Assembly: GCA_965205265.1 (NCBI GenBank)
Contig: CBDBGH010000003.1
Coordinates: forward strand, 3,616,001-3,680,000
From: Alphaproteobacteria bacterium
GTDB taxonomy: Bacteria; Pseudomonadota; Alphaproteobacteria; Bin95
Length of the DNA stretch: 64,000 bases
Direction of reading: 5' to 3'
Shown here: positions 27,972 through 46,455 of the stretch, one piece after another
Layout: the number at the start of each line of letters is the position of its first letter
Position numbering within the stretch: position 1 is the first letter of the stretch
Position numbers and translations under genes: made by a program
The notes under the pieces: model-generated
Databases searched by the model: none
The model's input: the letters and a program-made list of their open reading frames with translations, nothing else
What the model was told of the DNA's origin: nothing

Positions 27972-28328
27972 ATGCCCATCGGCACCCGCTACGTCTTCAT
28001 CGCAAGCATGGATGTGGACCCGGAGAAGGAGGATCTGTTCAACGAAGTCTATGACACCGAGCATGTGCCCTACTTGCTGGAGGTGCCGGGCGTGATAGCG
28101 GTCACGCGCCTGAAGGCGCTGGACTTCGAGAGGTCGATCGGCGGCGAGCTGCAGTCGGTGCCACGCGGCGAGACCCCGACATGGCACGCCATCTACGAGA
28201 TCGAAAGCCCCGACGTTTTGAAGAGCGCGGCGTGGGCGGAGGCCGCCGAGCGTGGCCGCTGGCCCGGCGAGGTGCGTCCGCACACCCGCAACCGGCGCCA
28301 TTCGCTCCAGCGGGTGACGGGGGCGTAG
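27972..28328 (+). CDS. EthD/DUF4286-like dimeric alpha-beta barrel protein
   Basis: MDVDPEKEDLFNEVYDTEHVP..LEVPGV, AIYEIESPDV; RBS GAGGAG. Confidence 0.75.
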   Translation: MPIGTRYVFIASMDVDPEKEDLFNEVYDTEHVPYLLEVPGVIAVTRLKALDFERSIGGELQSVPRGETPTWHAIYEIESPDVLKSAAWAEAAERGRWPGEVRPHTRNRRHSLQRVTGA

Positions 28329-28699
28329 CAGCCCGCGTACCGAATCCTCGAAGGTCCGCGGATCTCGAGGCGTCCGCGTTCGTCGCAGCGGAGCAACGTG
28401 GTGATGGTGCAGATCACCGGGCCAGCGCCCACGTGTCGTTAAGAGCGTATGTCCTTCAGCGGCAGGCTTGTGATGGGGTGGTCCGCCCTACACTGGCGGC
28501 ATTCAACGAGGGTTGCTCGGCGCGCCGAGCAACAATCCACAAGACCGGCCGGGTCACGGGCGCGATCCGCCATGGCCACCTGTCGATCGAGGAAGGCGGC
28601 AAGGTCGCCGGCGACGTCGCCGCGGCAGATGGCGACGTCGCTGTTGTCCAAGCCCAACCCAGTTACGGTCAGGAATACAAAAGCGTCGGAAAAAGCCGA

Positions 28700-30430
28700 C
28701 TACATCAGGCACATCTCGCTGCTGGGGCCGAGATCGTCTTTCGCTTCGGCGATCAGGCCGGCCCAGTCGGCCGGCAGATCGACCGGTTGACCGGCGACGA
28801 TCGCCGACCACCCCTGCATCCAGAAATTATGCGTCGGATGCGCGCCGCCAGCGACGGCCAGGATGATCTGCGACGGATCGCGGCAGATTGCCCAGGGATC
28901 GTCGTTGGCGGTGGCGGCGGTGTTCGGGTTCGACGCGTCGTCGATCCACTGCCACAGGCCGGTCCGCTTGACCTCTTCGTGCGGGATCCTGGAATGCTCC
29001 CACAGGAAGGCCTTGACCTTTTCCTTGGTCCAGCCGAGATCGGCCAACTGCCTGGCGACGATCCGCGGCACCAGCAAGGCGCCCGGCGTGCCATTCCAAT
29101 GGCCTTGCATGTAATGCCCGCTGGGGCTGGCAAGATAAGACGCGACGCGATGCAGGCCCTGCTCCGCCTCCTCTTCCTGCGTTTCCTTGCCGACGCCGCG
29201 GCGCATGACGTTCGACGCGCCGGTCGCGATATAGACTGTCACCGCATTCTCGCCGCGTTTGGCATGCCCGAAATCGACGCTGACCGGGTCCCAGCCCTCA
29301 GGCAGCCCGTCCTCGTCCTCGGCGATGACCACGTTCGTGTAGCGCATGGCGCCGAAGATCGCCATCGTGCCCACACCGGGCAGCGCGCCGCCGACATTCT
29401 GCTGGATCAGGCGCAGCGCGCGGCCGATCGAGGCGCCCGCCGGATGCTGCGGATCGGGACCGAGCAGGCCGAAGCCGGAATTGAGCCGGATCTCCTTCGC
29501 CATCGGCCCGTTGACGATGACCACCGGGAAGGTGCTGCCCGAGGTCGCCTGGATCTTGTCGTGTTCCAGCCCCGGATCGATCAGTCCCGCCGTTGCCGCG
29601 ATCAGCACCGGCAGATACTCCGGCCGGCCGCCGGCCATTGCCAGCGAAATCGCGATCGTCTCGATCGTCGCCACGCCGCCGCGCGGCATGACCTTGCCGA
29701 TGACATGATCCCGCGGCAAATCGGTACCCTTCAGGATCCAGTCGACCCGTTCGACTGTCGGTGCGTTGACCGGCAGCCCATCGCCCCAGCTGCTGGTGAG
29801 GAACAGGCGGTTCATCTTGTCGAGCGCCGCTTCGTAGCCATTGGCTTCGATGCGCATTCTCGACGGCTCCTGCAGTCCGGTTTCGGTCGTCGCCGACTGC
29901 CAGTCGGTCAACCCCTCGCCAAACTTCCCGATCGCGCACTCGATCGGCGTCAGGTCACTGCCGACCAGGAACGGGTCAATCGGGAAGACCACCATGGCGG
30001 CGTCCTGGCCGAAACCCAGACCGGACACCGCATTGCGGACGACGCCCACGAAGTCCTCGCGGGCCAGGGTAACGGTGGGAATGCCCCTGCTTTCAATTCG
30101 AGCGGCAACACGGCCGCATGCTGTCGCGCAGGCGCCTCAAGAGGCGTTGCCGACAATGACCGCTTCGGCGCCGCGCGCCACGACCATGTCGACGGTTTCA
30201 TCCGTATCGATCTGCTGCGTTCCCATCGGGAACTCGGTCTCCGGAATGAATACGGCATCCGGATAGCGTTCCTGCAGCTTCTCGCGTACCAGCGGCAGTA
30301 TGCGGTGCGCCTGCCACATATCGTCGGACAGAAAGGCGACGGTCTTGCCGGCCAGCGTGTCAAGCCGCGGAGCGTGCAGGTTGATCACCTCTGTCGCTCC
30401 CGTCGGATCAAAGATTTCCAAGGCATCCAT
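28700..30430 (-). CDS. UGSC-family selenoprotein fused to its usual thioredoxin-like partner domain (Sec at TGA 30137-30139)
   Basis: ORF 30137-30430 ends in TGA and reads through in frame (...GNAS-U-GACATACGRVAARIESRGIPTV...) into ORF 28700-30049 (WGDGLP..PT.ERV, ISLAMAGGRPEY); SECIS-like hairpin follows the TGA. Confidence 0.85.
30102..30127 (-). promoter_or_regulatory. putative bacterial SECIS hairpin
   Basis: mRNA GCG-A-CAGCAUG-[CGGC]-CGUGUUG-C-CGC; apical loop starts ~21 nt after the UGA and contains G. Confidence 0.6.
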
Positions 30431-30606
30431 GAACGGTTCCTCCTCGTTTCGTGAATTGTTGCCAGACGTAGCGCAGTCGGCGCGCGTCTTCCAATTTCAT
30501 GTCCGAAGCCCTTTTGTTGTTCGGCTCCGTCTCATGAACCCCATGCTCGCTGCTGTCGCAACGGGTTGGCAGGATTATAGGCGTCCAACGGCGACGCCGA
30601 ACAACA

Positions 30607-30726
30607 CTCGTCCCGCGATGCCGGCCGGCTGTCTTCCCTGTGCATGAAGCGTCTCCCGGATTGGAACATTCAGGCAACATATAGCCTGTCGATGCGCGTC
30701 GGCCAAGCATGCGGCCGGGCTGACGG
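30607..30726. repeat. ~120-bp direct repeat, copy 2, with LexA-like box at 30664-30678
   Basis: Aligns with 27676-27795; carries only the first ~12 codons of the small gene. Confidence 0.85.
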
Positions 30727-30839
30727 GCCCGGAGCCGGACGCCGTCAGGCATGCAAGCCTGTTGCAGGCGCGCCTGAAACAAGGTTCATGGGGCGGCGCC
30801 GAACGACACCTGCCGCTGACAGGGACAATCGGGCCAGAA

Positions 30840-31549
30840 TGTGCGGTCGATTCACCCAGCGCCTCTCATGGGCGGAACTGCACGAGCTGATGAACCTCAT
30901 CGGCCCGCCCCGCAACCTGGAGCCCCGCTACAACGTCGCTCCGGGCCAGGATGTCGCCATTGTCCGCGCCGCGGAACACGGATCGCAGTCGGGCGACGGC
31001 CGCCGTCTCTCCATGCTGCGCTGGGGGTTGGTACCCGCCTGGTCGAAGGATCCCTCCATCGGCAACAGGCTCATCAATGCGCGGTCCGAGACGGTCGCGG
31101 AGAAGCCGGCCTTCCGCGCCGCATACCGGCGCCGGCGCTGCCTGGTCCCGGCCGACGGCTTCTACGAATGGCAGCACCGGGGCGCGACCCGCCAGCCCTG
31201 GCTGTTCGGCCTCCGCGGTGGCGCGCCCTTCGCGTTCGCCGGCCTCTGGGAGCGCTGGACCGGATCGGAGGGTCCGGGGCCGACAGGTTCGCTCTTCGGC
31301 CCGGAACCCGGCTGGCCGGTTGAGACGTTCACCATCCTCACCACCGCCGCCAACGAGACCGTGGCGCAAGTCCACGGCCGCATGCCGGTCATCCTGCCCC
31401 CGGACGCCTGGGGTGCTTGGCTTGCGGGCGAGGACATTCCGCTCGGCCCCTGTCCCGCGGATGAAATGCACGCGCATCCGGTGAGCACGCTGGTCAACAA
31501 GCCCGCCAATGACGATCCACGCTGCGTCGAGCCGGTCTCCCTCTGCTGA
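30840..31549 (+). CDS. SOS response-associated peptidase (SRAP/YedK/HMCES family)
   Basis: MCGRF N-terminus, RYNVAPGQ, INARSET, RCLVPADGFYEW, HGRMPVIL. Confidence 0.93.
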
Positions 31550-31657
31550 TCGCCGGCAACCGTTCCCGACTTCGCCGACCGGTCCGGATGAAGCGGCGCC
31601 TGAGCGCCCTGGGACCGGCCGGTTACAGGCAGCCCTTATGCTTGTATCTCTTCGGCG

Positions 31658-32194
31658 CTACGGGTCGGGATTTCCAGCCTGGGCCTCGATTTGCCACAAT
31701 TCCGTTTCCCACCACTCGATGGATGCCTCTATGGCCTGCAACGGCGAATAGGCGCGATCTCCTATCAGTATTGCCGGATAAATTGATGGAGCATCCAACA
31801 TTTCCTGTTTTTCGGCAGGCGATGGAAATAGCGATGATCGATATTCTTTCAGAATCGTATTTCTTTCCTTCTCGATGAATTCATTAAAGATCAGATGTTG
31901 AAATGGTTGGGATTTCCAACGGTTCCAGGCGGCATCTATTGCCGAGCGGAGTGCATTGGATCGTGTTGCATCCATGTTTCGCAAGGCATGTCCTACCGCC
32001 CGCAGAATTGTGATCGCTGTGATCCACCGCAGGCGAATGGTCGCCAAATCATCCGAGTCGAGTGCAGCGGAGAAATCATGCTTGGCTCGATAAGCATCAC
32101 GTAGAACGCGCCGCGCCGCAAGGGCATCGTATTTCGAATATCGATTATTCTTCTTCGCCCTGCTTCTGCGAGTGTTTTGCCAGGTCCTGGCCAC
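31658..32194 (-). CDS. hypothetical all-helical protein, lower GC
   Basis: 178-aa ORF with atypical codon usage; ERNTILK motif loosely HEPN-like. Confidence 0.6.
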   Translation of the reverse strand: MARTWQNTRRSRAKKNNRYSKYDALAARRVLRDAYRAKHDFSAALDSDDLATIRLRWITAITILRAVGHALRNMDATRSNALRSAIDAAWNRWKSQPFQHLIFNEFIEKERNTILKEYRSSLFPSPAEKQEMLDAPSIYPAILIGDRAYSPLQAIEASIEWWETELWQIEAQAGNPDP

Positions 32195-32825
32195 GGTGAA
32201 GCTCCAGAGTGTTCGGAACCCGCGTCAACGGTTCCTGCCGGTGGCGTGTCGAGTGCGGCTTCCGGCGATGCTCCTTCGGGAAGGGCATGCAGGCAAGGAC
32301 ATCGTGCCCGGTCTCGTCCAGGAAGGTAGCGAACCTGGGCGCCCCGGCCCTGAGCCGGACCGCGACCTGTCGCCACTGGACGCCAGCGCATTTCTTCTCT
32401 GTGTTCCTCTTTTTTTCTCAATGAGGGGTTGCAATGGGAAAGAAAATCTAACATAACGGGAAGCGGACGGCGCAAGAGGAGTCAGCTCTTGCACCGCCCT
32501 GACCAAGGATCTTCTGGAGAAAGATCGCATGGCTGCTCACGAACTTAGCACGGCCCCGACGCCGGCTGTCAGCCCATACGACCGTCCCTGGCAACCGGCG
32601 CGAACCGGGATTCCGCCCGGCATTTGCGCCGCCTCCCGGCGCGCGCCCTCCGGCCGCGCCCGGCGGTCATTGCGCCCGGAGACAGTCGGGGCTCACGCCG
32701 CCCGCCCGCCCGCGGCGCATTCGCTGAATCCCTGAGTCCCCGGCGCCGTCCGGCGTCCGGCGATGACCGGCAACGTCCTGCGCTTCACAGGCGCAGGCGA
32801 CAGGCTGTGGAACTGTGAGGAGACC

Positions 32826-33704
32826 ATGACCGACAGCGACTTCACCCTGCCGGAGGCCGCACCCGCCGTCCGGCTCGGGCCGAACCCCGACAACGGCCGC
32901 GACCTGGTGGTCGGCGACGTCCATGGCCATTTCGCCACGCTGCGCCATGCGCTGGCCGAACTGGAGGTCGGCGCGGGCGACCGGCTGTTCTCGCTCGGCG
33001 ACCTGGTCGACCGCGGCCCCGACTGCTTCCAGGCAAAGGCCTGGATCGAGGGTTCGGCCCTCCCGGCTCTGGGGCCGGGACAGGCCCCGGCGCGGTTCGA
33101 CCTTGTCGTCCGCGGCGATCACGAGCAGCTGATGCTCGACGCGCTGGGCCCGCAGGTCTCGGCGGCATACAGGCCGCTCTGGCCGGCCGACTGGAACCTC
33201 TGGCGTCTCAATGGCGGAGACTGGTGGGAGGAGGGGGACCCGGTCGACCCCGCATCGGGGGGAGTCTGCCCCGGACTGCGATCCGGGAGGACAGGCGATG
33301 CCCGGTCCTGGGCCGTGGCGCTCGCGGGGCTGCCCTTCGCGGCCCGCATCGAGACGTCGCACGGCCCGGTGGGCCTCGTGCATGCCTGCCCGGTCCACCG
33401 CTCATGGGAGGCGCTGGAAGAGGCGCTCCGGCAGGACGGGCCCGACGGCCGCCGCACGCGCACGCGCGCGCTCTGGAGCCGCGTCCATCACCGGACCCGC
33501 CGGCCGGAGACCGACGGGCCGGTGGCGGGCGTGCGCGCCGTCCTGACCGGCCACACGCCCATGCCCGGGCCCGTCTGGCGCGCGAACGTCCTCGATATCG
33601 ACACCGGTATCGTCCGCCAGGGCATGCGCCGCCTCACTGTCGCACGTATCGACACGAAGGAGATCGGGACATGGACCTTCGACCGGGTGCCTGGCGAGAC
33701 GTAA
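32826..33704 (+). CDS. PphA/lambda-type Ser/Thr metallophosphoesterase (uninterrupted copy)
   Basis: GDVHG, GDLVDRG, RGDHE (Asn replaced by Asp), GLVHA, TGHTP, DIDTG; RBS GAGGAG. Confidence 0.88.
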   Translation: MTDSDFTLPEAAPAVRLGPNPDNGRDLVVGDVHGHFATLRHALAELEVGAGDRLFSLGDLVDRGPDCFQAKAWIEGSALPALGPGQAPARFDLVVRGDHEQLMLDALGPQVSAAYRPLWPADWNLWRLNGGDWWEEGDPVDPASGGVCPGLRSGRTGDARSWAVALAGLPFAARIETSHGPVGLVHACPVHRSWEALEEALRQDGPDGRRTRTRALWSRVHHRTRRPETDGPVAGVRAVLTGHTPMPGPVWRANVLDIDTGIVRQGMRRLTVARIDTKEIGTWTFDRVPGET

Positions 33705-33910
33705 TGACAACCGGCCCGAAGACGCCATCCGGGATCGTGGGGGAACTGCGCTTCGGGATGAACAGCGCAGGGCAGTTCAACTTGTTCCTCTATGCGCCAT
33801 GCTCAAGGTAGCTACAGGCCAATAGGCCGCGCTCTGCTGCATCGCCTCCCCATAGACGGCCTGCGTCGAACGGATACCGTCTATGGGGAGGGACCGGCGA
33901 CCGGAAGGAG

Positions 33911-34957
33911 TCAGCAGCAATTGTCGTTGGGATGGTCTTGGTCGTCGTCTTCCCAATCGGCTTCTTCCTTGCCAGCAGCTCGACGCCGCACACGTCCAGC
34001 GAACTCTCGGTAGTGGATTTTCCCGTCTGCGTAGTCGGCCAGGAGGTCTTGGTAATTGTCGAAGCGGGTACGTGCATCTGGAAGCTGCTCGGGCAAGGTC
34101 GTGCCGATGAAACTCAAGAGGCGGGCGTCAGGCGCGTCGCCGACTCGGATGTCGTTGAAGCCGAGCGAGTCTTGGCGCATTGCGCGGTCAGCCAGACCCC
34201 TATCGGTGACGTGATAGAGCTGGTTGAGGGTTTGATAGAGAATTACGCCGCACTCGCCGAGGACATCGAAGGTAGCGCGCGGAAAGCGGCGAGCGACGAG
34301 GATCGGAACGCAGTTCAGCGCGACACACTTTTCAAGTAGCCGCTTGACTTCGTCCGTATCGGGGTAAATCCACCTACGGAAGCTCTTTGCCTCGACACCG
34401 GCAAACCCCGCTGTGCGATGCAGATAGAGGAAGTCGAGCAGACGTCCCTCGGGTATTGCGCGGCCCCCGATGTGGGCGGGTGGTTCCTCCTTGCGGTAGC
34501 GGCTCTTTCGTTCTGCGACGGACGGGTCGAAATCGGGAAATCGGCCGAAGTAGGGAGCATTGGATTGGGCACCAAGTGCGCGGAAGATGGCAAGTTCCAG
34601 GCACTGGCCCCGACGATCCGAAACGGCTGGTTTAGAAAGTGCACGGAGAACGCGCCTCAGCGTGGCGAGGCGTGCTTGTACGCCTGTTTCCGGGGCATCG
34701 GGAAGGTGGAACCACGACGGATCGTCGTTGATGCCGACAATCTCCACTAGGTCGCCATCGCGAACGAGGATCTTGCGGGCCATGCCCAATATATGAGGCT
34801 CCAGCGGCTGGGCGCCCGTGTCGCAGATCTCGTGTTCGAGCATCCGCGCTGTCATGACGACTCGACGGGAGAGGACGTCGCGCAGCCGAGCCTTGGCGAG
34901 CGCGAGGTCGGCCGGATCCGACTCCGGGTGCGATGACGTTGGGGGGCGACGCGCCAT
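33911..34957 (-). CDS. PD-(D/E)xK restriction-endonuclease-like protein
   Basis: G..LELAIF helix, GRLLDFL...GVEAKSFRRWIYP; RBS GAGGGAGG. Confidence 0.6.
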   Translation of the reverse strand: MARRPPTSSHPESDPADLALAKARLRDVLSRRVVMTARMLEHEICDTGAQPLEPHILGMARKILVRDGDLVEIVGINDDPSWFHLPDAPETGVQARLATLRRVLRALSKPAVSDRRGQCLELAIFRALGAQSNAPYFGRFPDFDPSVAERKSRYRKEEPPAHIGGRAIPEGRLLDFLYLHRTAGFAGVEAKSFRRWIYPDTDEVKRLLEKCVALNCVPILVARRFPRATFDVLGECGVILYQTLNQLYHVTDRGLADRAMRQDSLGFNDIRVGDAPDARLLSFIGTTLPEQLPDARTRFDNYQDLLADYADGKIHYREFAGRVRRRAAGKEEADWEDDDQDHPNDNCC

Positions 34958-35042
34958 GGAATTGGAGCCTCCCTCAGGATAGTGAGTCAACACAGCGATT
35001 ATATCTTAATTGAATGGTCTTCCAATCACACTGTGCAGTTAC

Positions 35043-35048
35043 TATAAT
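35043..35048 (+). promoter_or_regulatory. sigma70 -10 box upstream of the E1/E2/JAB operon
   Basis: TATAAT in an AT-rich divergent intergenic region. Confidence 0.45.
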
Positions 35049-35076
35049 TGGATACTCTCAACTGAAGGATGGGACC

Positions 35077-35271
35077 ATGGCACGAAAACCTACGATCGAG
35101 GAGCTGGAAAGCATCCTGGACGACGAGGAGGACATCCCGATCGAGATACTCCCCAACGGCGAGATTCGGGCGCTTGGAGGTAGCGACGCGGCGGAGCGGA
35201 ATTTCCAGAAGCCGCTGACGATGCGTGAGGACCTCGGCGGCGAATACGGACGGCGAGGTAACCAAGCATGA
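35077..35271 (+). CDS. 64-aa acidic peptide, candidate non-canonical protein modifier/substrate
   Basis: MARKPTIEELESILDDEED...RALGG...REDLGGEYGRRGNQA; GAAGGA upstream; ATGA overlap with the E2 gene. Confidence 0.7.
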   Translation: MARKPTIEELESILDDEEDIPIEILPNGEIRALGGSDAAERNFQKPLTMREDLGGEYGRRGNQA

Positions 35272-35642
35272 ATCTGGCGCGAATCCGCGAAGACATCGCC
35301 GCTGCGCAACGGTATTTCCAATATGTTGAGGGCCGGGCGACGCCGGAAGGTGGCTTGATGGCGCTCATCGCGCTGCAGACCAGCGGGCGCCTCTACACCC
35401 TCGGCGTGTCGTTTCCAGATTCGTACCCGAACGCGATGCCCGAGGTACATGTCAGGAAACCGTCGCTGTCATACTCACCGCACCAGTACCTGCACGACCG
35501 GATCTGCTACCTCCACCCGCACATGTGGAACCCGGGTCGTCACAACCTGACCTTCGTCATACAGCGCGCCGCGAAATGGCTCGGCAAGTATGAGGTGTAC
35601 CGGAAGACGGGGAAGTGGCCGGGGGCAGGTTTGGACCATTGA
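35268..35642 (+). CDS. prokaryotic E2/UBC-like protein
   Basis: FPDSYPNAMPEV...SPHQY...RICYL...WNP pattern matches UBC fold YP..PP/HPN/ICL/W.P. Confidence 0.8.
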   Translation: MNLARIREDIAAAQRYFQYVEGRATPEGGLMALIALQTSGRLYTLGVSFPDSYPNAMPEVHVRKPSLSYSPHQYLHDRICYLHPHMWNPGRHNLTFVIQRAAKWLGKYEVYRKTGKWPGAGLDH

Positions 35643-35646
35643 GACG

Positions 35647-36246
35647 ATGAGCAACACTCAACGCCAGGCGACTGTGAAGCTGATCGAGGGGCAGGCATCT
35701 GGCCCGCGGTCCAACGATACGCACATCGAGTTCAAGCCCCTGCCGATGATGGCGCTGCGCAGCAGCCCAGGGGAGGTGCTCGACGAAGTGTCGAAGGAGG
35801 GGGCCGCCTACCTGATCGAACGCAACGGGCAGCAGAAAGCGTGTCTGGTTCCCATATCGTGCTTTCTGCCGGATATCCAGCGATCACGCGTAACGGCGGA
35901 ACTCGACAGACTCGAGGACTCCGTGGAGAAGTACCGCGTGGCAATCAGCGCCGAGCGGGAGATGCAGTTCCTTTTCCGCGAATTCAGCGGCGACACGCGA
36001 TTGGAGGTGGCGGTGACGCTGCCCCATGGCTACCCCAACAAGGCGCCCGTGGTGACGGCTGAGCCGATCGAGGAAGGCTGTCCGCACCGGTGGCCAGACG
36101 GGACGTTATGCCTCTATGGCGCAGTGGCGGTGTGGAACCCGGGTAGGCACGACGTGATGCACGCAGTCGCGCTCTTCCGGCGGTGGATCCAGCACTACAC
36201 CGTATGGCGGCAGACAACCGAGTGGCCGCGGGAGGGGTTGGAATGA
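35647..36246 (+). CDS. Phd/YefM-like domain fused to an E2/UBC-like domain
   Basis: N-terminal LRSSPGEVLDEV...YLIERNGQQKACLVP; C-terminal LPHGYPNKAPVV...CPHRWPDGTLCLY...WNPGRH. Confidence 0.75.
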   Translation: MSNTQRQATVKLIEGQASGPRSNDTHIEFKPLPMMALRSSPGEVLDEVSKEGAAYLIERNGQQKACLVPISCFLPDIQRSRVTAELDRLEDSVEKYRVAISAEREMQFLFREFSGDTRLEVAVTLPHGYPNKAPVVTAEPIEEGCPHRWPDGTLCLYGAVAVWNPGRHDVMHAVALFRRWIQHYTVWRQTTEWPREGLE

Positions 36247-37085
36247 TGACTGACGGTCTTTTTGCGAGGGTTGAGCCTCTGTTCGACGTCGACGCATTCC
36301 GGGACCAGTGGGTGCTGATCGCCGGTTGCGGGTCGGGCGGCGGCCAAGTAGCGCTGCAGCTGGTCATGTCGGGAGTCAGAAAGTTCATCCTGGTGGACAT
36401 GGACGAGGTCGCGGTCGAGAACATCATCAGACATGTGTGCGGCCTCCGTTATGTGGGCTGGCGCAAGACCGCGGCGCTCGCCGACGTCCTCAAGGATCGC
36501 AACCCGGAGGTCGAGATCAGGTCGTTCAACGAGGATGTTCTCGAATGGCCGGGCTTGGAAGACGAGGTTGAGCGGGCGAGCGTGGTCGTGATCGGAACGG
36601 ACAACGAGCCGAGCCGCTACCGGCTGAACGAAGTATGCGTGAAAACGGCGACGCCGTTCACGGTCGGGCGCGTGTTCACCCGCGGCATCGGCGGCGAAGC
36701 CTACGCATACCGGCATGGAAGCACCGGATGTCTGGCCTGCCTGGAGGGGGTTCTGGAACGCACCCGGTTCCGGGAAGGGGTGCGCGAGATCGACCTCGCA
36801 ACGGAGGAAGAGCGCCAAAAGATGTACGACCTTGAAATCGAGGAGATCAAGGACTCGCCAGGCTTGTCGGTGGACATCGGCTTCATTGCCGCGTTTCACA
36901 CGCGGCTCACGCTGGACGCACTCGGTGAAATGGCCGACGAGCGGCCGAAGTTCATGACGCCGCTCGAGGAGAACTACCTCGTGTGGGGCAACCGGACTGT
37001 CCACCCGTTCTCGAAGAATTTCCAACTGCAGCGGATGTCCTTGCAGCCGCAGAAAGGCTGCAATGTCTGCGGAGGGCAGGTATGA
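36243..37085 (+). CDS. ThiF/E1-like adenylyltransferase
   Basis: IAGCGSGG, VDMDEV..ENIIRH, GTDN..SR, CLAC and C-terminal CNVC zinc ligands. Confidence 0.92.
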   Translation: MMTDGLFARVEPLFDVDAFRDQWVLIAGCGSGGGQVALQLVMSGVRKFILVDMDEVAVENIIRHVCGLRYVGWRKTAALADVLKDRNPEVEIRSFNEDVLEWPGLEDEVERASVVVIGTDNEPSRYRLNEVCVKTATPFTVGRVFTRGIGGEAYAYRHGSTGCLACLEGVLERTRFREGVREIDLATEEERQKMYDLEIEEIKDSPGLSVDIGFIAAFHTRLTLDALGEMADERPKFMTPLEENYLVWGNRTVHPFSKNFQLQRMSLQPQKGCNVCGGQV

Positions 37086-37996
37086 ACGCGATGAGAGACG
37101 TACGTTCGGTCAGGGTCGAAATTGCCGCGCGGGCCTTGGAGGCCGTTTTCGAGGAGTGCGACCGCTACGACAGCGACGAGACGGGCGGGCGGATGGTGGG
37201 GCACTTCTCGCTGGAGCGGAACACGCTGGTGGTGAGGGCGCGTGGAGTCATAGAACCGGGGCCTAACGCCAAGCGGACCAGCGCCAGCTTCTTCCAGGAC
37301 GGTGACTACCAGACCGAGATCTTCCGGCGGATCGAAGCCAAGGACCCGACGGTCGAGCACCTGGGCAACTGGCACACGCATCATGTGAACGGGTATCCGA
37401 ACCTGAGCGGAGGCGACGTGGCAACCTATCGCCGCATCGTGAACCACGAGCTGCACAACCTGGACTTCTTCTACGCGTTGCTGGTGACGGCGCGCCGTGA
37501 GGGACGGTCGGGACTCGGCCGTTACACGGTGCGGCACTACGTTCTGTTCCGCGGAGACGACGGGGTCTATGAGGTAGATCCGGGGAATGTCCGGATAACG
37601 GACGAGGCGACGATCTGGCCGAAAGACGCAGCCGGGCCGGGCGACGGGCTCGAAACCGACCCTCAACGAATGAAGCAGGCTGCTGCCATCCGCGCGCACG
37701 ACCTGCAGGTCCTCAAGGTCATGTACCCTTCGCTGAGTCCGCGACAGTCGGCGCGGTCGGAGATGTTCTTCTGGAAGGGGCCGTTGCCGCTGATCGATGG
37801 TACTGAAGCGGGGCTGCGGATCCTGGAAGTGGAAGACGATGAGGGGCTTGCCTACTACCTGAGGGTGAGCCCGGCCTCGGCGGAGGCGAGGGAGCTGTAC
37901 GAGACGCGCTTCCGAAGCGCGAGCGAGGCAGTGCGCACGCTGGAGGTGAGCTTGGACCGGGCGATCTACCGGTCTGCCGCTGGATCGGAGGGCTGA
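37082..37996 (+). CDS. JAB/MPN metalloprotease with a C-terminal extra domain
   Basis: ETGG, LGNWHTHH...NLSGGD (E..HxH..S..D JAMM motif). Confidence 0.88.
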   Translation: MNAMRDVRSVRVEIAARALEAVFEECDRYDSDETGGRMVGHFSLERNTLVVRARGVIEPGPNAKRTSASFFQDGDYQTEIFRRIEAKDPTVEHLGNWHTHHVNGYPNLSGGDVATYRRIVNHELHNLDFFYALLVTARREGRSGLGRYTVRHYVLFRGDDGVYEVDPGNVRITDEATIWPKDAAGPGDGLETDPQRMKQAAAIRAHDLQVLKVMYPSLSPRQSARSEMFFWKGPLPLIDGTEAGLRILEVEDDEGLAYYLRVSPASAEARELYETRFRSASEAVRTLEVSLDRAIYRSAAGSEG

Positions 37997-38826
37997 TGAC
38001 GATGGAGATATTGACGCTCTATGCGGGTCAGGGGAATTTCGCGGTTGTCCGCCATGGTGGGCAGGCAATCGTGGTGGATACCCGGCGCCCGGCCGAATGT
38101 TCGGACGACATCGCGTCGAAGGTGAGCCGATTTCTGAGGGGGCGGGAACTGGTGGGCATCGTGTTGACGGGGTTCGACGACGATCACGCGGACCCGGACG
38201 GACTCGACTGGCTGCTGGAGGATTATGCGGCGGCCTGGGTGATGTATCCCAAGTACTACAAGGATACGGAAAACACGCAGCGGGTGTTCAACGTAATCCG
38301 CAAGCATGAACGACGGCGCGAGAACACGCACAATCCACTTGAGCGTGTGTCGGTTCGCCTCGACCGGCTAGACTCACGGTACCTCGACGAGCTGTCCGAT
38401 GAGTTCGACCTGGAGCTCTTTTCGCCGCACATCGAGGACATGGACAACTCGAACAACTGCAGCATCGTACTGAAGATCGAAGGAGTCGGACCAGACGGAT
38501 TCGGATACCTCGTGACCGGCGATACCGAGAACCCGCGCTGGGACAGGATTGTGGCTCTGTTCGACGATGCCTTGGCGGCGGACGTCATGGCTGCACCGCA
38601 TCACGGGTCCAAGAATGCGGCGCATCCGGGCATGGCCCTGGCGGTTTCGCCCGACACGGTGCTGATCAGCGCCGGCATCGACAATCAGTACGGACACCCG
38701 GACGCGAAGGCGGTGGCGCTCTATTCGCGCGTCGCCGAGCATGTGTTCCAGACCAACATCCGGACAGGGATTTCGTGGCTCACGAGGCGCGTGGGTAGTG
38801 ATTTCCCGACGCAAAGGGTGGCGTAA
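37996..38826 (+). CDS. ComEC/Rec2-like metallo-beta-lactamase-fold hydrolase
   Basis: GQG, IVVD, TGFDDDH, NNCSIV, LVTGD, APHHGS, ISAG..NQYGHP; TGATG overlap. Confidence 0.85.
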   Translation: MTMEILTLYAGQGNFAVVRHGGQAIVVDTRRPAECSDDIASKVSRFLRGRELVGIVLTGFDDDHADPDGLDWLLEDYAAAWVMYPKYYKDTENTQRVFNVIRKHERRRENTHNPLERVSVRLDRLDSRYLDELSDEFDLELFSPHIEDMDNSNNCSIVLKIEGVGPDGFGYLVTGDTENPRWDRIVALFDDALAADVMAAPHHGSKNAAHPGMALAVSPDTVLISAGIDNQYGHPDAKAVALYSRVAEHVFQTNIRTGISWLTRRVGSDFPTQRVA

Positions 38827-39093
38827 CGAAGGGTCGGAGGATGCCTGGACCATTGGTCCCAGAGCGAACTTCAAGAACGCATGCCATTCCGATTTGACTG
38901 CAGTGGGCGGAACGCGAGGCGCGTCACCTGCTCCACGAAGGCGAGGGCAAGTGGGACTCGCACCGACCCCCGACGACAGCATCCTGCTTGCGACGATCTC
39001 GAAAGAGACGCGAATGCGTGGGTGGTGGGCGTAATGACGATCATCCGCAAAGGTGGGTGTGTCGGCTTCTCTACGCGGGCTTGGTGAGCAGCG

Positions 39094-40236
39094 ATGAAGG
39101 TCGCGCTCGCACTCTCCGGGGGCGGCGTCCGAGCGGCCGTGTTCCACTGTGGCGTGCTGCAGCGCTTGGCGCTGGACGGCTTGTTGGAATCGACGGCGTT
39201 TGTGTCGACGGTCTCAGGGGGCAGTCTGGTCGTGGGGTTAATCCTCTGCCAGAACGGCCATCAATGGCCGGGCAGCAAGGAGTTTCTCGAAGCCGTGCTG
39301 CCGAGCGTTAGGACTCGGCTCACGACGGCGACCCTGCAATGGTCCTATGCGTGGAGGTCGGTCGTGCTCCCCTGGAGACTTGCCCGCGGGCGTGCGCACG
39401 TTCTCGCGGGCCTGCTTGAAGCCCAATGGGGAATCTGCGGGACGATGCAGGACGCACCTGAGACACCCCGTTGGATGGTGAATGCGACCTGTTACGAAAC
39501 AGGGCGGAACTGGCGGTTCAGCCAGCGACGAATGGGCGACTACGCTACGAACTATGTGTTGAAGCCGACGACGCCAATCGCCGATGCGATCGCCGCTTCG
39601 GCCGCCGTGCCGGGGGCAATCGGACCGCTTGCGATCCGGTCGGCCGACTACGATTGGCACCGCTACGAGAGTGGACAGCTTGTGGCGAGCTCGACGCCTG
39701 CAAAGCGGTACGCGTTGTGGGACGGTGGAGTGTACGACAACTTGGGCGTGGAATCACTGTTCAAACCCGGCGGCGGATTCCGTGACGGCTTCGACTTCCT
39801 GGTGGTGAGCGACGCATCGGCACCGCTGTCCCTGGACATTGGGAAGGTCAAGCGAATGTTCATGCCATGGCGGCGAGCGCTTCGTCTGGTGGACGTGGCA
39901 ACGGAGCAGGTGCGGGGGTTGCGGGCGCGGTCGCTGATCGCCGAGTTTCAGCGAGCCCCGGCAGCGGGCGTTTATGTAAGGATTGGCAACACCGTCGAGA
40001 CGGTTTACGGCGCCGTACGCCGAGAGCCTCCCGCCGGGGAGCATCTCGGGGAGATCGACGTCGCCCGCGCGGAGCGTTTCAAGACGACTCTCCGACGACT
40101 TAGCGGGGAAGAGTTCGAACTCTTGAGGCGACATGGATTCGAGGTGGCGAACGCGACGTTGGCAACGCGGCAGCCCGAGCGGTTTTCGTACAGGGTGTTG
40201 TCCGGCGCGCCGCTTCCACGCCGATCAGCACCATAA
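39094..40236 (+). CDS. patatin-like phospholipase
   Basis: LALSGGGVRA, STVSGGS nucleophile elbow, ASAAVPG, DGGVYDNLG. Confidence 0.9.
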   Translation: MKVALALSGGGVRAAVFHCGVLQRLALDGLLESTAFVSTVSGGSLVVGLILCQNGHQWPGSKEFLEAVLPSVRTRLTTATLQWSYAWRSVVLPWRLARGRAHVLAGLLEAQWGICGTMQDAPETPRWMVNATCYETGRNWRFSQRRMGDYATNYVLKPTTPIADAIAASAAVPGAIGPLAIRSADYDWHRYESGQLVASSTPAKRYALWDGGVYDNLGVESLFKPGGGFRDGFDFLVVSDASAPLSLDIGKVKRMFMPWRRALRLVDVATEQVRGLRARSLIAEFQRAPAAGVYVRIGNTVETVYGAVRREPPAGEHLGEIDVARAERFKTTLRRLSGEEFELLRRHGFEVANATLATRQPERFSYRVLSGAPLPRRSAP

Positions 40237-40334
40237 GTGACTGATCCCGTTGGATACCGAAGTATCAGGCCCCCGCGCATAGCGGCATGCCAGATCGAGT
40301 GCCCCGAAAGGCGGGAAGGCACGCCTGAGCCCTG

Positions 40335-42218
40335 TCAGAGCTTGAGCGCGCGCCCCTTGCGGCGGACCTTCTTCGGGGTGGGAATCTTCTCGCCCGGCCA
40401 GAGGATGTCGGCATAGGCGAGCGGGCGGTCGGCGAAGCCGAGCCGCATGGCGGGCGTGGCGCCGTCCACGCCGGTGTGGATGAAGTTGTTCACCGCCCGG
40501 AAGACGTCGAGATATTTCTGCACCATGTCCGGCCTGTAGGGCGCATAGCCGTACCAGACCTGCTGCCAGCGCCCGCTCGCCGTGTCGATCGGGCGCTCCA
40601 GGGCCGAGAGGAACCGCCGGGTCAGCTGGAAGACATTGTCCACCTGCGCGACCGAGGCCGCGAGATAGAGCCGGGCCCTGTCGTCGAGCTCCATATCCGG
40701 GCTCTCCGTGATCCAGCGGACCTCCTTGCCGGGCTCCTGGGCGGTCGGCACCGGGTGCCGCAGCCAGCCGTCCTCGGGCAGGCCGTCCGCCCGCAGGGCG
40801 GTCCGGATCATCTCGAAGCCGAGCTCCTCCTCCGTCATGCCCTCAAGATGTCGAGCCCGGGCGAAGGCCCGCATCTGCCTCTCGGTCTCGCGGTAGATGC
40901 GGTTGCGCTCGTCGATCGGGCAATCCTTGGCGTAGCGCACCAGGAAGCCCTGCGCGCGACCCTCGCAGACCTGCTCCTGGAAGGCGCACATGAAGGACGC
41001 GATGGTCGAGAGATGCTGGTCCATCGACAGCTGGAGCCGCTCGACGCCGGCGCCCTTCAGGATCTCGCGCAGCACGAACATGTGCCCGAGCGTCCGGTAG
41101 CCGGTCTTCACCAGCATGCCGGAGCGCAGCATGGTGTCGCGCAGCGGCCCCTGGCCCGGCACGATCTCCATCTCCGCCACGTCGGCATAGGCATTGGCCG
41201 CCCGGAAAGCGTCCTGGATGTCGCCGACGGCCTGTTCGGCCGCCCGGGCGCCCATGCGGCGCTGGCCGGTGCGCCCGCTGCGCATCTCGTCGCCGGCGAG
41301 CCAGAAGCGGGCATATCTGCGGAACGCCTCCTTGCGGGTCAGGTCGCCCAGTTCGGCCGACTCCTGGTTGACGTCGAACGGGTCGAAGCGCGGATCGTGG
41401 TTCACGTCCAGTTCGAGGATGAAGCGCGAGCCGGCATCGACGCTGCAGCAGGAGGTCACCTCGACCGTGCGGCGCTGGACCTTGCGCGGCCAGTTGACCA
41501 TGAGCGACTGCGAGTCGAGGGCGATGTCCATCTCGGCCGGCAGGCGCCGCGCGCCGGTCAGGAACGCCCGTGTGACGGCGCCGTTCATCTCCCGGCAGCG
41601 CCGGTGGATGAAGTCGAAGACCGTGTAGTAGTCCTTGCAGCTGTTGAGCCCGGCCCCTTCCACCGTGCGGCGCATCGGGGACTTGTTGGCGATTCGAGAG
41701 AGCACATCGGCGGCGAGCGACTGGTTCTTCGCGTGGATCCTGGGAGCCTTGCGCGAGACGAGGATGCGCCGCAGGCAGGCCTTGCACTGGTAGTAACGGT
41801 TCTCCGGCGTCTTGTAGTAGCCGCGCCTCCAATAGCGATCCCGATGCTCGCCGACCGAGAGGCCGAAATTGGCGCAGCCCTCAGTCTTGCAGGCGAAGTG
41901 GTGCTCCAGCGGCCGGGCATAGTCGGAGATGCGCTCGATCTCCTCGGCGATAGCCGCGTTCGAGCGGATGGCGCCCTTGCCCCTGCAGACCTTGCACTCG
42001 ATGGCGGGTTCCTGGCCCTTGGCGGTCGAGTTCAGCTTGTACCGGAGATCGCGGTCCCGGCTCGGCCCGGTCTTGCCGCGCTTCGTGCGCGCCGGCACGC
42101 CGAAATTGGCGCAGCCCGGCGTGCGGCAGTGGTTGACCTGAACCGGGAACGGTTCTCCGAGGAGCCTGGCATGGGCGATTTCGGGGACCCGGAGCGAGCG
42201 GCGGGGCGTTGAAGCCAT
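40335..42218 (-). CDS. large zinc-finger transposase-like protein (IS1/IS1595-like insertion element protein)
   Basis: Repeated C..C motifs (CRTPGCANFG, CKVC, CKTEGCANFG, CKAC), IALDSQ, SMDQ, VDNVFQ..RR, TPAMRLG. Confidence 0.65.
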   Translation of the reverse strand: MASTPRRSLRVPEIAHARLLGEPFPVQVNHCRTPGCANFGVPARTKRGKTGPSRDRDLRYKLNSTAKGQEPAIECKVCRGKGAIRSNAAIAEEIERISDYARPLEHHFACKTEGCANFGLSVGEHRDRYWRRGYYKTPENRYYQCKACLRRILVSRKAPRIHAKNQSLAADVLSRIANKSPMRRTVEGAGLNSCKDYYTVFDFIHRRCREMNGAVTRAFLTGARRLPAEMDIALDSQSLMVNWPRKVQRRTVEVTSCCSVDAGSRFILELDVNHDPRFDPFDVNQESAELGDLTRKEAFRRYARFWLAGDEMRSGRTGQRRMGARAAEQAVGDIQDAFRAANAYADVAEMEIVPGQGPLRDTMLRSGMLVKTGYRTLGHMFVLREILKGAGVERLQLSMDQHLSTIASFMCAFQEQVCEGRAQGFLVRYAKDCPIDERNRIYRETERQMRAFARARHLEGMTEEELGFEMIRTALRADGLPEDGWLRHPVPTAQEPGKEVRWITESPDMELDDRARLYLAASVAQVDNVFQLTRRFLSALERPIDTASGRWQQVWYGYAPYRPDMVQKYLDVFRAVNNFIHTGVDGATPAMRLGFADRPLAYADILWPGEKIPTPKKVRRKGRALKL

Positions 42219-42679
42219 GGCTCTGCCTCTTGTAATGAGGCGGTCCATCGTAACGCCGGAGGGGCTTCCTGTCAAGCCTGAATTAGAACATTGGCAAGTA
42301 AAAACAATGTGTTATCCGGGTTTCCTATCGACCCCCAGAGAATTCAAAGGAACTTTTGTGTCAGTTTATGACTGCTAAAATATGCCATATTATCAATGCA
42401 TTATATCGTATTTTGACACAGAATTTTCATCGGCTATCTCTCCGCCATAGCGGATGCTCCTTTTGTGGGAACCTGCTGTGAACTCGATACTCAACGTATT
42501 GATTTTCCGCCATTAACTGCCGCCGTTCAGCACCGCAACATGTTGCTTCGGAACGATTTCACGGGGTCAACGGCGGTGTCGAACAACATGGAGCGAGGCG
42601 CGCAAGCGCCGGATCGCGCCGGCCCGGGGTTTCGGTCGTGGCGCAGCGTCATGACGTGAACGCGAACCCGGTCTTCAGT

Positions 42680-42910
42680 TGGCGACGACTATAGGGGCAC
42701 AGGCTGCGACCGGGGGCACCTGGCTCCGGCCGACGCCATGAAATGGTCGGAAGAAGCCATGAGCGGCAGCCTCTTCCTGGCGAATACCGCGCCGCAGGAC
42801 GGGGTAGGGTTCAGCCGGCACATATGGAAGGCGCTGGAGCGGGGGATGCGGCGCCGGGCCTGTGAACGCGGCCGGCTCCCTGTCATGACCGGGCCCCTTT
42901 ACGAGACCCG
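42680..42910 (+). pseudogene. fragment of a DNA/RNA non-specific (NucA/EndoG-like) endonuclease
   Basis: DYRGTGCDRGHLAPA..MKWS..AM...NTAPQ..GF.R.IW..LE...TGPLY; no N- or C-terminus. Confidence 0.75.
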
Positions 42911-42912
42911 CC

Positions 42913-43932
42913 CTACCGCCCCCCTGCCGACCAGGAAGCGGCGGCAGTCCTGCCCTGTCCCTGCCTGTCCACACGGCGCCGGATGGCATCCTCAATGCTG
43001 CCGAGTATGCCTTTTGGCAGGAAGACGATGAACAGGACGAGCGCTACGCCGTAGATCGCGTTGTCGAGGCCGACGGCGTCCGTGCCAATGTAGATGCGCA
43101 GTATCTCGGCCAACAGCAGCGTGATGATGGCGCCGAAGGTCGGGCCGAACTGGGTAAACACCCCGCCCGCGACGACAGCGAACACGATCTGAAGCGAGAT
43201 ACCGATGCCGCTCACCGTGTCGGGCGCAACGAACAATTGGTATTGCACATACATCGCGCCGCCGAACGCCGTCATGACCGCAGAGAGCACGGTGATCTTC
43301 AGCTTTTCCCAGGTGACGTTGATGCCGGCGGCGGCGGCGCTGTCCTCGTCCTCGCTTATCGCATCGAGCGCATTGCGGACCATCGAGCGGTCCACTGCCC
43401 GCCAGACCAGGAGGCCGGCCAGCCAAACGACGACGGCGATCAGGAACCAGGTTTCCTTGTCCTCGAACTGCAGCGCGATATAGCCGGGCGTGTCGTCATT
43501 GCCCTTCGGCGTGGGCGTGAAGCCGAGCGAGCCGCCGGTATGGTCGCGCGTCGCGATCACCGTTTGCCGCACCACCTCCGTCAGCGCCAGGGTGACGAGC
43601 GCGAAATAGTGGCCCGTGATGCGGAACTTGAAGCAGGGGTAGCCGACGATCACCGCAAGCAGGGCCGCGAGCGCGAGCGCAATCGGGATGCCGAGCCAGG
43701 GCGTCATGCCGGCATAGTTCCAGAGCAGCGCCGTGGCATAGGCGCCGAGCCCCATGAAGGCGCCGTGACCGAGCGACACCAGGCCGAAACGGCCCATGAG
43801 CGACCAGCCGGTGTAGGTGAACGACCATATCAGGATCACGATCATGATATGCAGCGGATAGGACGGGATGCCGATAAGGGCCGCGATAGCGAGCAGCGCC
43901 GCGAAGGCTATCGGCAGGGTCAGGCTGTTCAT
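42913..43932 (-). CDS. branched-chain amino acid-type ABC transporter permease (LivM-like)
   Basis: SLGHGAFMGLGAY, YFALVTLA, GPTFGA, PKGI. Confidence 0.9.
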   Translation of the reverse strand: MNSLTLPIAFAALLAIAALIGIPSYPLHIMIVILIWSFTYTGWSLMGRFGLVSLGHGAFMGLGAYATALLWNYAGMTPWLGIPIALALAALLAVIVGYPCFKFRITGHYFALVTLALTEVVRQTVIATRDHTGGSLGFTPTPKGNDDTPGYIALQFEDKETWFLIAVVVWLAGLLVWRAVDRSMVRNALDAISEDEDSAAAAGINVTWEKLKITVLSAVMTAFGGAMYVQYQLFVAPDTVSGIGISLQIVFAVVAGGVFTQFGPTFGAIITLLLAEILRIYIGTDAVGLDNAIYGVALVLFIVFLPKGILGSIEDAIRRRVDRQGQGRTAAASWSAGGR

Positions 43933-44903
43933 GACCGCCGCCCCATAATGCCCTCGGGCCGGACGAACATCATCGCGATGAAGAAGGCGAAGGCGAACAC
44001 ATAGCCCCACTCCAGGTCGAAGTGGTAGCCGCCGAGCGCAATCAGCTCGGACAGGATGAATGCGGCGATAAAGCCGCCCACCATGTTCCCGAGGCCGCCC
44101 AGCACGCAGATCATGAAGGTGATCGGCCCGAAGCTGAGGCCGACGAAGGGATGCACATCGTATTGCAGCACCAGCAGGCAGGCCGCGAGGCCGGCAAGGC
44201 CGCCGCCGATGGCGCTCGAAATCAGGTAGAGCCGGCCCTGGGATGCGCCCATGAGCGTCATGATCTCGCGGTCCTGGCTGATGGCGCGGATCGCCGTGCC
44301 CATGAAGGTTCGTGTCAGGAACAGGTAGAGGAAGGCGACGCAGGCGGCGGCGACGATGAAGGCCGCAAGCCGCGACCAGGAAATGTAGATGTCCTCGGTG
44401 AGCGGAAACGAGCCGAGCGAGACGCCCAGATTTCGGAAGTCGATACCGAAGGCGAGCGTGGCAACGCTCTGGAAGAAGAACAGCAGGCCTCCCGTCGCCA
44501 GCAGTTGGTTGATCGGTGCCGAGTCCAGCAGGTGACGGATGACCAACCGGTGCACGGCATAGCCGATAAGGGCCGTCAGCAGGATGCCCGCCGGCATGGC
44601 GAGCAGCAGCGGCACGCCGTAGTAGCTGTGCAGGTAGTAGATGCCGTACATGCCCAGCATCACGATCTCGGCGTAGCAGATCCAGACGACATCGACGACG
44701 CCGAAGATCAGGTTCAGGCCGAGGGACAGCAGAGCCAGAACGCCGCCGAGAAGCAGCCCGTTGATCATCGCCTCGTAGAGGAAAACGTCCGACACCGCGA
44801 AACCGAGATTACCCTCCCGTATGATCGCGGGCACATAGGCCAGGCACACGAACAGCCCTGCCGCGATTACGATCAGCCAGACGCGGGTGTCGATCCTGCC
44901 CAT
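43929..44903 (-). CDS. branched-chain amino acid-type ABC transporter permease (LivH-like)
   Basis: SLGLNLIFGV, GTAIRA, VLGGLGN, RPEG. Confidence 0.9.
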   Translation of the reverse strand: MGRIDTRVWLIVIAAGLFVCLAYVPAIIREGNLGFAVSDVFLYEAMINGLLLGGVLALLSLGLNLIFGVVDVVWICYAEIVMLGMYGIYYLHSYYGVPLLLAMPAGILLTALIGYAVHRLVIRHLLDSAPINQLLATGGLLFFFQSVATLAFGIDFRNLGVSLGSFPLTEDIYISWSRLAAFIVAAACVAFLYLFLTRTFMGTAIRAISQDREIMTLMGASQGRLYLISSAIGGGLAGLAACLLVLQYDVHPFVGLSFGPITFMICVLGGLGNMVGGFIAAFILSELIALGGYHFDLEWGYVFAFAFFIAMMFVRPEGIMGRRS

Positions 44904-44934
44904 TTCCGTTCCCCGTCCCCCGAAACGCCCGGCC

Positions 44935-45639: not shown

Positions 45640-45663
45640 GGGGTTCCGGCGTGCCGCCCTGTA

Positions 45664-46413: not shown

Positions 46414-46455
46414 GGCGCGTGTTCCCTCCCCCGATGCGCGCGGATGCGCGAACCG

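Follow-up and report, generated by a model that had tools for sequence, protein, structure and literature searches.

A short helix-hairpin peptide heads a conserved E1/E2/JAB gene cassette and is a candidate non-ubiquitin-fold conjugation tag

We analysed a 64,000-nt stretch of contig CBDBGH010000003.1 (positions 3,616,001 to 3,680,000, assembly GCA_965205265.1, Alphaproteobacteria bacterium), hereinafter designated the window. It contains an operon that encodes a 64-aa peptide, two E2-like proteins (E2a and E2b), a ThiF-type E1, a JAB/JAMM peptidase and a metallo-β-lactamase (MBL)-fold protein. The subject of this work is the peptide gene. Its open reading frame (ORF) starts with an ATG at 35077 and ends with a TGA stop at 35269–35271. 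An AAGGA Shine-Dalgarno sequence lies 8 nt 5’ of the ATG, and the stop codon overlaps the start codon of E2a (ATGA), which suggests translational coupling. A longer frame from the ATG at 35014 (85 aa) was rejected, as every homolog begins at the equivalent of 35077. A consensus scan of the upstream DNA gave a single σ70-like promoter, on the − strand, and none on the + strand. The features named in a preliminary description of this DNA, namely an acidic helix, LGG at residues 33–35, DLGGEYG at residues 52–58 and a 7-aa tail, are all present at the places given there.

Homologs of the peptide are abundant. At E ≤ 0.01, it is matched by 562 proteins of 35–112 aa, the best 120 of which are 72–100% identical, and a profile search of 1.84 billion representatives (50%-identity library) returned 584 matches at E ≤ 0.001. 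Among 26 cassette copies, the differences by codon position number 4871, 3969 and 11208, with third positions dominant, and the invariant residues L53, G54, G55, E56 and Y57 are encoded by 6, 4, 4, 2 and 2 different codons, respectively. Judged by these comparisons, the peptide ORF is a genuine gene, well beyond chance, on which purifying selection acts strongly.

Three elements of the peptide are conserved: a helix (TIxELExxL), a hairpin around ILPNGE, and a C-terminal segment, KPLTMREDLGGEY, with conservation ending sharply at its Tyr57. L53-G54-G55-E56-Y57 is kept in all 116 close homologs (the best 120 minus four longer proteins set aside), in 50/50 genome and plasmid loci, and in 76/76 metagenome loci. 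LGGEY is also found in 131 of 149 distant representatives. Near-variants account for nine of the remaining 18 (IGGEY and VGGEY twice each; LGSEY, LCGEY, LEAEY, LGGNY and LGGEM once each), and the other nine have no motif, most of them looking truncated or frameshifted. The tail after Tyr57 usually has 0–13 residues, and its sequence is not conserved. The proposal that LGG(EY) is an invariant core followed by a variable tail is thus borne out across close homologs, genome loci and metagenome loci.

The position of the end is informative. The gene stops directly after Tyr57 in 42 copies (8/50 genome and plasmid loci, 21/76 metagenome loci and 13/140 further copies). None of about 400 copies ends at GG or GGE; an apparent GG end in locus L042 is merely a tail that happens to finish in GG. 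Of the tailed copies, 81–83% have G, A or S directly after Tyr57, compared with 23–54% at the four positions beyond it. The invariant E56 and Y57, the 42 ends at Tyr57, and the small residue at position 58 point to Tyr57 as the likelier processed end. The preliminary description had proposed cleavage after G55 to give a GG-ended tag; this is doubtful, because the two residues that follow, E56 and Y57, equal the glycines in invariance and no copy ends at GG or GGE. It had also pointed to the first LGG (residues 33–35), which is not conserved (L33 in 61, G34 in 112 and G35 in 96 of the 116 close homologs) and is lost in more distant cassettes, so this motif is ruled out as a second processing site. 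Two long proteins, P0207 (1163 aa) and P0252 (1392 aa), each have 7–8 matches to profile positions 31–53, which may be a linker repeat or a compositional effect.

The peptide gene belongs to a cassette of fixed order: peptide, E2a, E2b with its Phd-like domain, ThiF-type E1, JAB, MBL and often a patatin. From the peptide through the MBL, successive genes overlap or lie only a few bases apart. The genome scan gave 50 loci, one of which (L050) was discarded as a false match. In all 49 true loci, the peptide lies directly 5’ of E2a and the order is as in the window. At the ORF level, E2a was recovered in 49 of these loci, E2b in 44, E1 in 46, JAB in 43 and MBL in 41, and the misses are mostly cuts at contig ends. 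The metagenome scan gave 381 related stretches, 80 of which were kept. In all 69 metagenome loci that continue for at least 450 nt downstream, E2a is the next gene after the peptide, and E2a, E1, JAB and MBL are all present in 34/34 loci with at least 3900 nt downstream. The peptide is therefore a conserved first gene of an E1/E2/JAB operon, as first described. Two observations named beforehand as counting against that description, a peptide not conserved beside homologous operons and a GG pair not conserved, were looked for, and neither was found. A divergent 360-aa gene upstream was rejected as part of the system, as it is conserved in L001–L003 and L073 only.

The cassette is widespread. 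It occurs in Pseudomonadota, Acidobacteriota, Binatota, Gemmatimonadota, Myxococcota, Planctomycetota, Verrucomicrobiota, Chloroflexota, Elusimicrobiota, Armatimonadota and Actinomycetota, and in one metagenome-assembled genome (MAG) of the archaeal Methanosarcinales. The last of these (L019) carries a complete cassette on a 70-kb contig with a peptide that ends exactly at Tyr57, and reflects either cross-domain transfer or a binning error. A plasmid of a cultured Mesorhizobium, sp. AR10, also has the cassette, with its genes annotated as hypothetical, E2, Phd/YefM, ThiF, hypothetical, hypothetical and patatin. It is the only cassette found in the plasmid search; the other plasmid E1 matches are anti-phage signalling systems based on cyclic oligonucleotides (CBASS), MccB and unrelated JAB-E1 systems. 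For 37 cassettes, a set that leaves out L009, L017, L043 and any locus without one of the six genes, the mean pairwise identity is 0.66 for the peptide, 0.65 for E1, 0.57 for MBL, 0.55 for E2a, 0.51 for E2b and 0.45 for JAB. By this measure, the peptide is the most conserved component of the cassette.

Natural fusions join the peptide to its neighbours. Peptide-E2a fusion proteins are found in several independent assemblies (P0286 and P0289, P0287 and P0292, P0288, P0277, P0150 and P0282), in which Tyr57 and the start of E2a are separated only by G, A, VP or a few residues. P0273 contains two peptide units in tandem, both with LGGEY-A at the end and both ahead of E2a, an arrangement that recalls polyubiquitin and the pre-proteins of Bub that carry a Ubl (ubiquitin-like protein) fused to E2. 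The peptide-E2a fusions and the tandem units of P0273 imply cleavage at the motif. Other than that, a Phd/YefM domain (E = 2.7e-8) precedes a full peptide in P0275, and a Phd/YefM-like domain is fused to just the KPLTFREDLGGEY tail on a viral contig (L072:7821–8048). These two fusions are a hint that the peptide and the Phd-like domain act jointly.

The structure of the peptide was modelled with AlphaFold 2 (mean predicted local distance difference test, pLDDT, of 73.7). The model contains a helix (residues 7–14), a hairpin (22–24/30–32), short helices and a low-confidence C-terminal part. The predicted fold is one helix plus one hairpin and is not a β-grasp. Foldseek found no match of the model in the PDB at E ≤ 0.001, the ESM Atlas gave no usable match, and the peptide hit no family in Pfam, PADLOC, NCBIfam or PHROGs.

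Using two E1 copies, ATP, Mg and peptide residues 1–57 as input, with alignments built from the same loci, we predicted the structure of the E1-peptide complex. The interaction score (interaction prediction score from aligned errors, ipSAE) was 0.82, 0.81 and 0.80, and the best of three controls reached 0.02. For calibration, 58 of 80 solved complexes come up to the mark for this score, compared with 2 of 110 mismatched pairs; these figures apply only roughly here, because the alignments were our own and riding ligands were included. Contacts agree by at least 85% between runs, with a partner pLDDT of at least 67. Peptide residues 19, 21–28, 30, 33, 44 and 46–57 are predicted to touch E1, and the E1 residues touched are 28 and 30–33 (P-loop, invariant GxGxxG), 118–121 (with T119 and D120), 142–152 and 262–271. 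Specifically, the hairpin (21–28 and 30) is modelled against E1 262–271, and residues 46–57 run to the remaining E1 segments. The modelled position of the tail is where the tail of an E1 substrate should lie. As the peptide was cut at Tyr57 beforehand, the model does not discriminate between Tyr57 and Gly55 as the end. The suggestion that the peptide binds E1 with its C-terminal tail at the adenylation site has support at the level of a model (ipSAE 0.81 compared with 0.02 for the best control).

The features of the cassette are listed in Table 1.

Table 1. Features of the peptide cassette in the window
Feature	Coordinates	Strand	Description
Peptide gene, 64 codons + stop	35077..35271	+	First cistron; ATGA stop/start overlap with E2a
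Conserved core, residues 1–57	35077..35247	+	Helix 7–14, hairpin 22–24/30–32 (ILPNGE turn), KPLTMREDLGGEY ending at invariant Tyr57
Variable tail, residues 58–64	35248..35268	+	Missing in many homologs; first residue mostly G/A/S; presumed propeptide
E2a, 124 aa, UBC/RWD-like	35268..35642	+	H72 and C80 invariant in 37/37 cassettes
E2b, 199 aa	35647..36246	+	Phd/YefM-like N-terminal domain + second E2 domain; C155 kept in 34/37
E1, 280 aa, ThiF family	36243..37085	+	P-loop G28–G33, D120 and two CxxC pairs invariant in 37/37; ATGA overlap with E2b
JAB/JAMM peptidase, 304 aa	37082..37996	+	E25 kept in 36/37; H98, H100, S109 and D112 invariant; extra C-terminal domain 194–302
MBL-fold protein, 276 aa	37996..38826	+	ComEC/Rec2-like metallo-β-lactamase domain; presumed nuclease effector
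Patatin-like phospholipase, 380 aa	39094..40236	+	Frequent, not constant, cassette neighbour

With their catalytic residues intact, the cassette enzymes appear live. E2a gives weak matches to UQ_con and RWD and matches the PADLOC E2 model at 4.2e-11, and the N-terminus of E2b matches Phd/YefM-like domains at 1.1e-4. E1 matches Pfam ThiF at 2.3e-28 and the PADLOC CBASS E1-E2 model at 2.7e-27, scoring up to 94 bits on CBASS E1-E2 models. Among solved relatives of the E1 profile, MccB is at the top (4.8e-19), with MoeB and ThiF just behind, and PaaA follows at 6.1e-11. A search for longer E1 relatives found no fused E2-E1-JAB form; it did return two ThiF-domain proteins of 593 and 596 aa, long enough for E1-JAB fusions. 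JAB matches Prok-JAB and the PADLOC JAB model (2.5e-18), and its structural model (pLDDT 88.3) matches MPN domains of the Rpn11/CSN5 type, a bacterial Ubl-deubiquitinase and Cap3. JAB residues 194–302 (window 37661–37993) are modelled with confidence as a helix, a four-stranded meander and a long helix, the element order of an E2/RWD-like fold. The closest solved relatives of the MBL protein are ComEC/Rec2 domains. The cassette MBL is short and lacks a conserved C-terminus, on which account it was rejected as a conjugated substrate here. No cGAS/DncV-like nucleotidyltransferase (CD-NTase) was found among the seven cassette proteins, the sole ‘Cyclase’ row being a weak match to the E2-like end of a fusion model. 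Likewise, family scans of the cassette found no transporter, YcaO, LanB or other enzyme for ribosomally synthesized and post-translationally modified peptides (RiPPs).

To our knowledge, the substrates of bacterial E1/E2/JAB systems are either a β-grasp Ubl (Bil and Bub) or the tail of the system’s own enzyme (type II CBASS and 6A-MBL). Of these, 6A-MBL, for which van den Berg 2024 is reportedly the primary paper, has E2, E1, JAB and MBL domains in one operon, as here. Its domain set is given by Iyer et al. (2006; Table 1, row 6a), and it is named as a defence system in PMC13276650 and in 10.1101/2025.09.30.679545. In 6A-MBL, E2-E1-JAB form one fused protein of a two-gene operon, whereas the domains here are split and there are two E2s. 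The NCBIfam models also separate the two. On NF058523 (cap2_3; cut-off 320 bits), the window E1 and JAB score 47 and 48.5 bits as separate proteins, and on NF058524 (6A-MBL MBL; cut-off 220 bits), the window MBL scores 33 bits. No cap2_3 match at E ≤ 1e-30 is present in the genome that carries the window.

As a sample of canonical 6A-MBL, we used five loci from 401 genomes of the same class. None of the five has a match to the peptide profile at E ≤ 1, and none has a small ORF ending in a sequence like GG[ED][YFW]; no small ORF within about 6 kb is common to three or more of them. An MBL upstream of cap2_3 is readable in four loci (L158:8933–10402, −; L159:8998–10302, −; L161:5171–6466, +; L162:5503–6675, +), and L160 gave no clear MBL. 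The canonical MBL open frames are 391–490 aa from stop to stop, compared with 276 aa here. Each ends in an FE(V/I)...G element followed by 23–27 flexible residues; the flexible tail has a terminal Gly (...HG or ...AG) in three of the four, and L162 ends in ...GRGNK. In layout, the FE(V/I)...G element plus tail resembles the hairpin plus tail of the peptide, a likeness we treat as a lead only. The peptide may be a split-off version of the C-terminal module of the canonical MBL. According to preprint PMC11601596, MBL pathways conjugate their own enzyme. On this comparison, it seems to us that a 6A-MBL-type substrate module is now a separate gene here.

Type II CBASS supplies the best PADLOC matches for E1, JAB and E2a, which fall on its Cap2/Cap3 proteins. 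The substrate of type II CBASS is described as the C-terminus of CD-NTase, not a ubiquitin fold (PMC11601596). In contrast, the cassette has no CD-NTase and no nucleotide-sensing effector, and its presumed substrate is a free 57-aa peptide. Like the cassette, Bil and Bub encode E1, E2 and peptidase in genes of their own and place a small substrate gene first. In Bub, Ubl-E2 fusions are pre-proteins that get cleaved (same preprint), a parallel to the peptide-E2a fusions described above. Unlike the Ubl of those systems, the peptide has one helix and one hairpin, no fold match, and a GGEY end.

The peptide also resembles Pup in size, acidity, partial disorder, and a GG plus acidic residue in the C-terminal region. 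This likeness is compositional only, as the preliminary description had held, with no Pfam family matched at E ≤ 0.01. Pup ends in GGQ or GGE and is partnered by a PafA/Dop-type ligase. In the peptide, by contrast, GGEY is followed or not by a tail, and the neighbours are E2, E2, ThiF-E1, JAB and MBL, with no PafA/Dop-type ligase. In the MccA/MccB and PaaP/PaaA systems, an E1-like enzyme acts on a ribosomal non-Ubl peptide, as is proposed here. However, those systems have no E2 or JAB, their product is a small antibiotic, and the MccA and PaaP peptides are far shorter than this peptide. Neither the peptide nor its motif is mentioned in the literature searched (‘DLGGEY’ has no occurrence), although supplements outside the scope of that search might note a small ORF.

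Relatives of the peptide were also found in 18 IMG/VR loci, 14 of which (L055–L068) have the full helix-hairpin-LGGEY design. These viral copies (e.g. L061:8001–8174 and L058:7995–8180) are 45–60% identical, with tails of 2–13 residues, and the frame in L058 continues for 297 residues. By tblastn and profile search, E2a, E2b, E1, JAB and MBL are all missing within 8 kb of the viral copies. No E1 match occurs in ten whole viral records (completeness at least 90% in seven, terminal repeats in one), and the same E1 profile finds three ThiF-type genes in the genome that carries the window (positive control). The contigs bearing the orphan copies are true phages. Their peptide genes lie just after the portal and before the scaffold gene (L058 and L061), after terminase and portal (L068), or after the major head protein (L062), and the copies have no other neighbour in common. 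A tblastn search of cultured phage records with the window peptide and one phage copy gave no match. A quick tree groups the viral copies together on long branches (3 changes; 0/500 shuffles as low), with the tree itself weak at 54 columns. All of the elements that contact E1 in the model are kept in the orphan copies. We speculate that they act as decoys or hijackers of the cascade; if so, they would be a new kind of counter-defence candidate.

The gene, its conservation and fixed order, the intact catalytic residues, the natural fusions and the in-silico E1 complex lead us to a tentative reading, which we prefer and place somewhat short of probable. It holds that the peptide is the dedicated, free-standing, non-ubiquitin-fold tag of a split E1/E2/JAB conjugation cassette of the Cap2/Cap3 type. 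The chemical steps, cleavage site and targets that we infer are as follows. A short precursor would be made, and its tail, where present, would be removed after Tyr57, most likely by the operon JAB. Strand 262–271 of E1 would then pair with the ILPNGE hairpin, and residues 46–57 would thread to the ATP site, where E1 would adenylate the C-terminal carboxylate of the peptide. The peptide would be passed as a thioester to Cys80 of E2a, and perhaps to Cys155 of E2b, before being joined to a target. Candidate targets are the MBL or patatin effectors, phage proteins, and Lys45 of another peptide. Conjugation might also be reversed by JAB. Tyr57 is mildly favoured over Gly55 as the mature end. The extended scheme, in which a 57-residue helix-hairpin tag is activated at a C-terminal Tyr by a Cap2-family E1, passed to two E2s, derived by splitting from the E1-recognition tail of the MBL effector, and matched by phage orphans that serve as jamming or hijacking decoys, is rather doubtful as a whole.

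Several points weigh against the preferred reading. The E1 and JAMM enzymes known to us, including those of CBASS and 6A-MBL, act on a C-terminal Gly or Ala, and a Tyr would be unprecedented; this rule favours Gly55. The hairpin turn is 27 residues from Gly55 and 29 from Tyr57, and the canonical MBL tails are nearer the former. Solved E1-Ubl complexes have a similar tail-in-active-site mode, which the prediction program may have partly reproduced from them, and predicted E1 binding would also be expected of a pseudo-substrate regulator. In addition, E2b is truly absent in four contiguous loci (L004, L042, L043 and L045) that keep the peptide, E2a, E1 and JAB, so the second E2 is dispensable in some lineages. 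In the alternative that moves the cut, JAB would cleave after Gly55, E1 would activate the Gly-Gly end, and Glu56-Tyr57, with or without a tail, would be an obligatory propeptide recognized by JAB. The evidence linking the peptide to the cassette applies equally to this version, and the invariant or nearly invariant G54 and G55, the established use of a C-terminal Gly by E1 adenylation sites and JAMM peptidases, the terminal Gly of most canonical MBLs that were read, and the fit of the Gly55 spacing to the canonical range all agree with it. However, known Ubl precursors are normally variable after GG, yet E56 and Y57 stay unchanged from phylum to phylum. Loss of EY is seen in no copy, whereas 42 lack everything beyond Tyr57; the small-residue constraint at position 58 adjoins Tyr57, not Gly55; and the rare variants alter the glycines (LGSEY, LCGEY and LEAEY) about as often as E or Y (LGGNY and LGGEM). 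We consider cleavage after Gly55 unlikely.

The preferred reading, conjugation of the peptide, has also to be set against readings in which it is no tag. It could be an unconjugated regulator, a pseudo-substrate or adaptor that holds E1, the E2s or JAB and keeps the cassette with its MBL and patatin effectors off until infection, with the phage copies as mimics. The predicted E1 binding suits an inhibitor as well as a substrate, the retention of the E1-contacting elements in the orphan phage copies would be expected, and E2b carries a fused Phd/YefM antitoxin-like domain, as do the peptide in P0275 and its tail in L072. Yet an inhibitor needs neither an invariant motif at the extreme C-terminus with a disposable tail nor fusions and tandems that require cleavage. 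Moreover, if the peptide were a regulator, both E2s, whose catalytic Cys is conserved, and the intact JAB would have no substrate, and the cassette MBL has no conserved C-terminus of its own. This makes the regulator distinctly improbable. A last reading is modelled on RiPPs and microcin C, with E1 modifying the peptide, as a peptidyl-adenylate or at the Glu56 side chain, into a small product or signal. The top rank of MccB among solved relatives of E1, together with the PaaA match, points in this direction, but MccB leads MoeB by just 3 bits and CBASS E1-E2 models score higher. No copy has the C-terminal Asn that MccA-type substrates require, the enzymes and transporter expected of a RiPP locus were not found in the cassette, and two E2s and JAB would have no role. 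The RiPP-like alternative of the preliminary description, taken with a variable C-terminal core, is contradicted by the existence of tail-less copies (8/50 and 21/76, i.e. 29 of 126 loci), so the variable part cannot be the core. We regard this reading as scarcely credible.

Bacterial E1/E2/JAB systems are studied both as roots of ubiquitin signalling and as a form of anti-phage immunity. If the peptide is indeed a conjugated tag, then E1/E2 chemistry can be redirected to a minimal, free, non-β-grasp tag, and the cassette would provide a very small and tractable model for substrate recognition by E1.

The genome that carries the window has a single copy of the peptide, and none was found in 40 relatives searched, 16 of which are of the same genus. 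The G+C content over 28–48 kb of the window is 63–65%, compared with 67.7% for the whole window. This rarity and the lower G+C mark it as an accessory island that was probably transferred. The region from 28000 to 48000 also has an SRAP peptidase gene (30644–31549), a metallophosphatase gene (32763–33704) and two large ORFs without a family match (40335–42275, −, 646 aa; 44887–47808, +, 973 aa). Further upstream, 24849–26933 (+) encodes a 694-aa protein with weak matches to an AAA_16 ATPase and, at its C-terminus, to a prohead protease (Peptidase_S78), which might be another defence gene.

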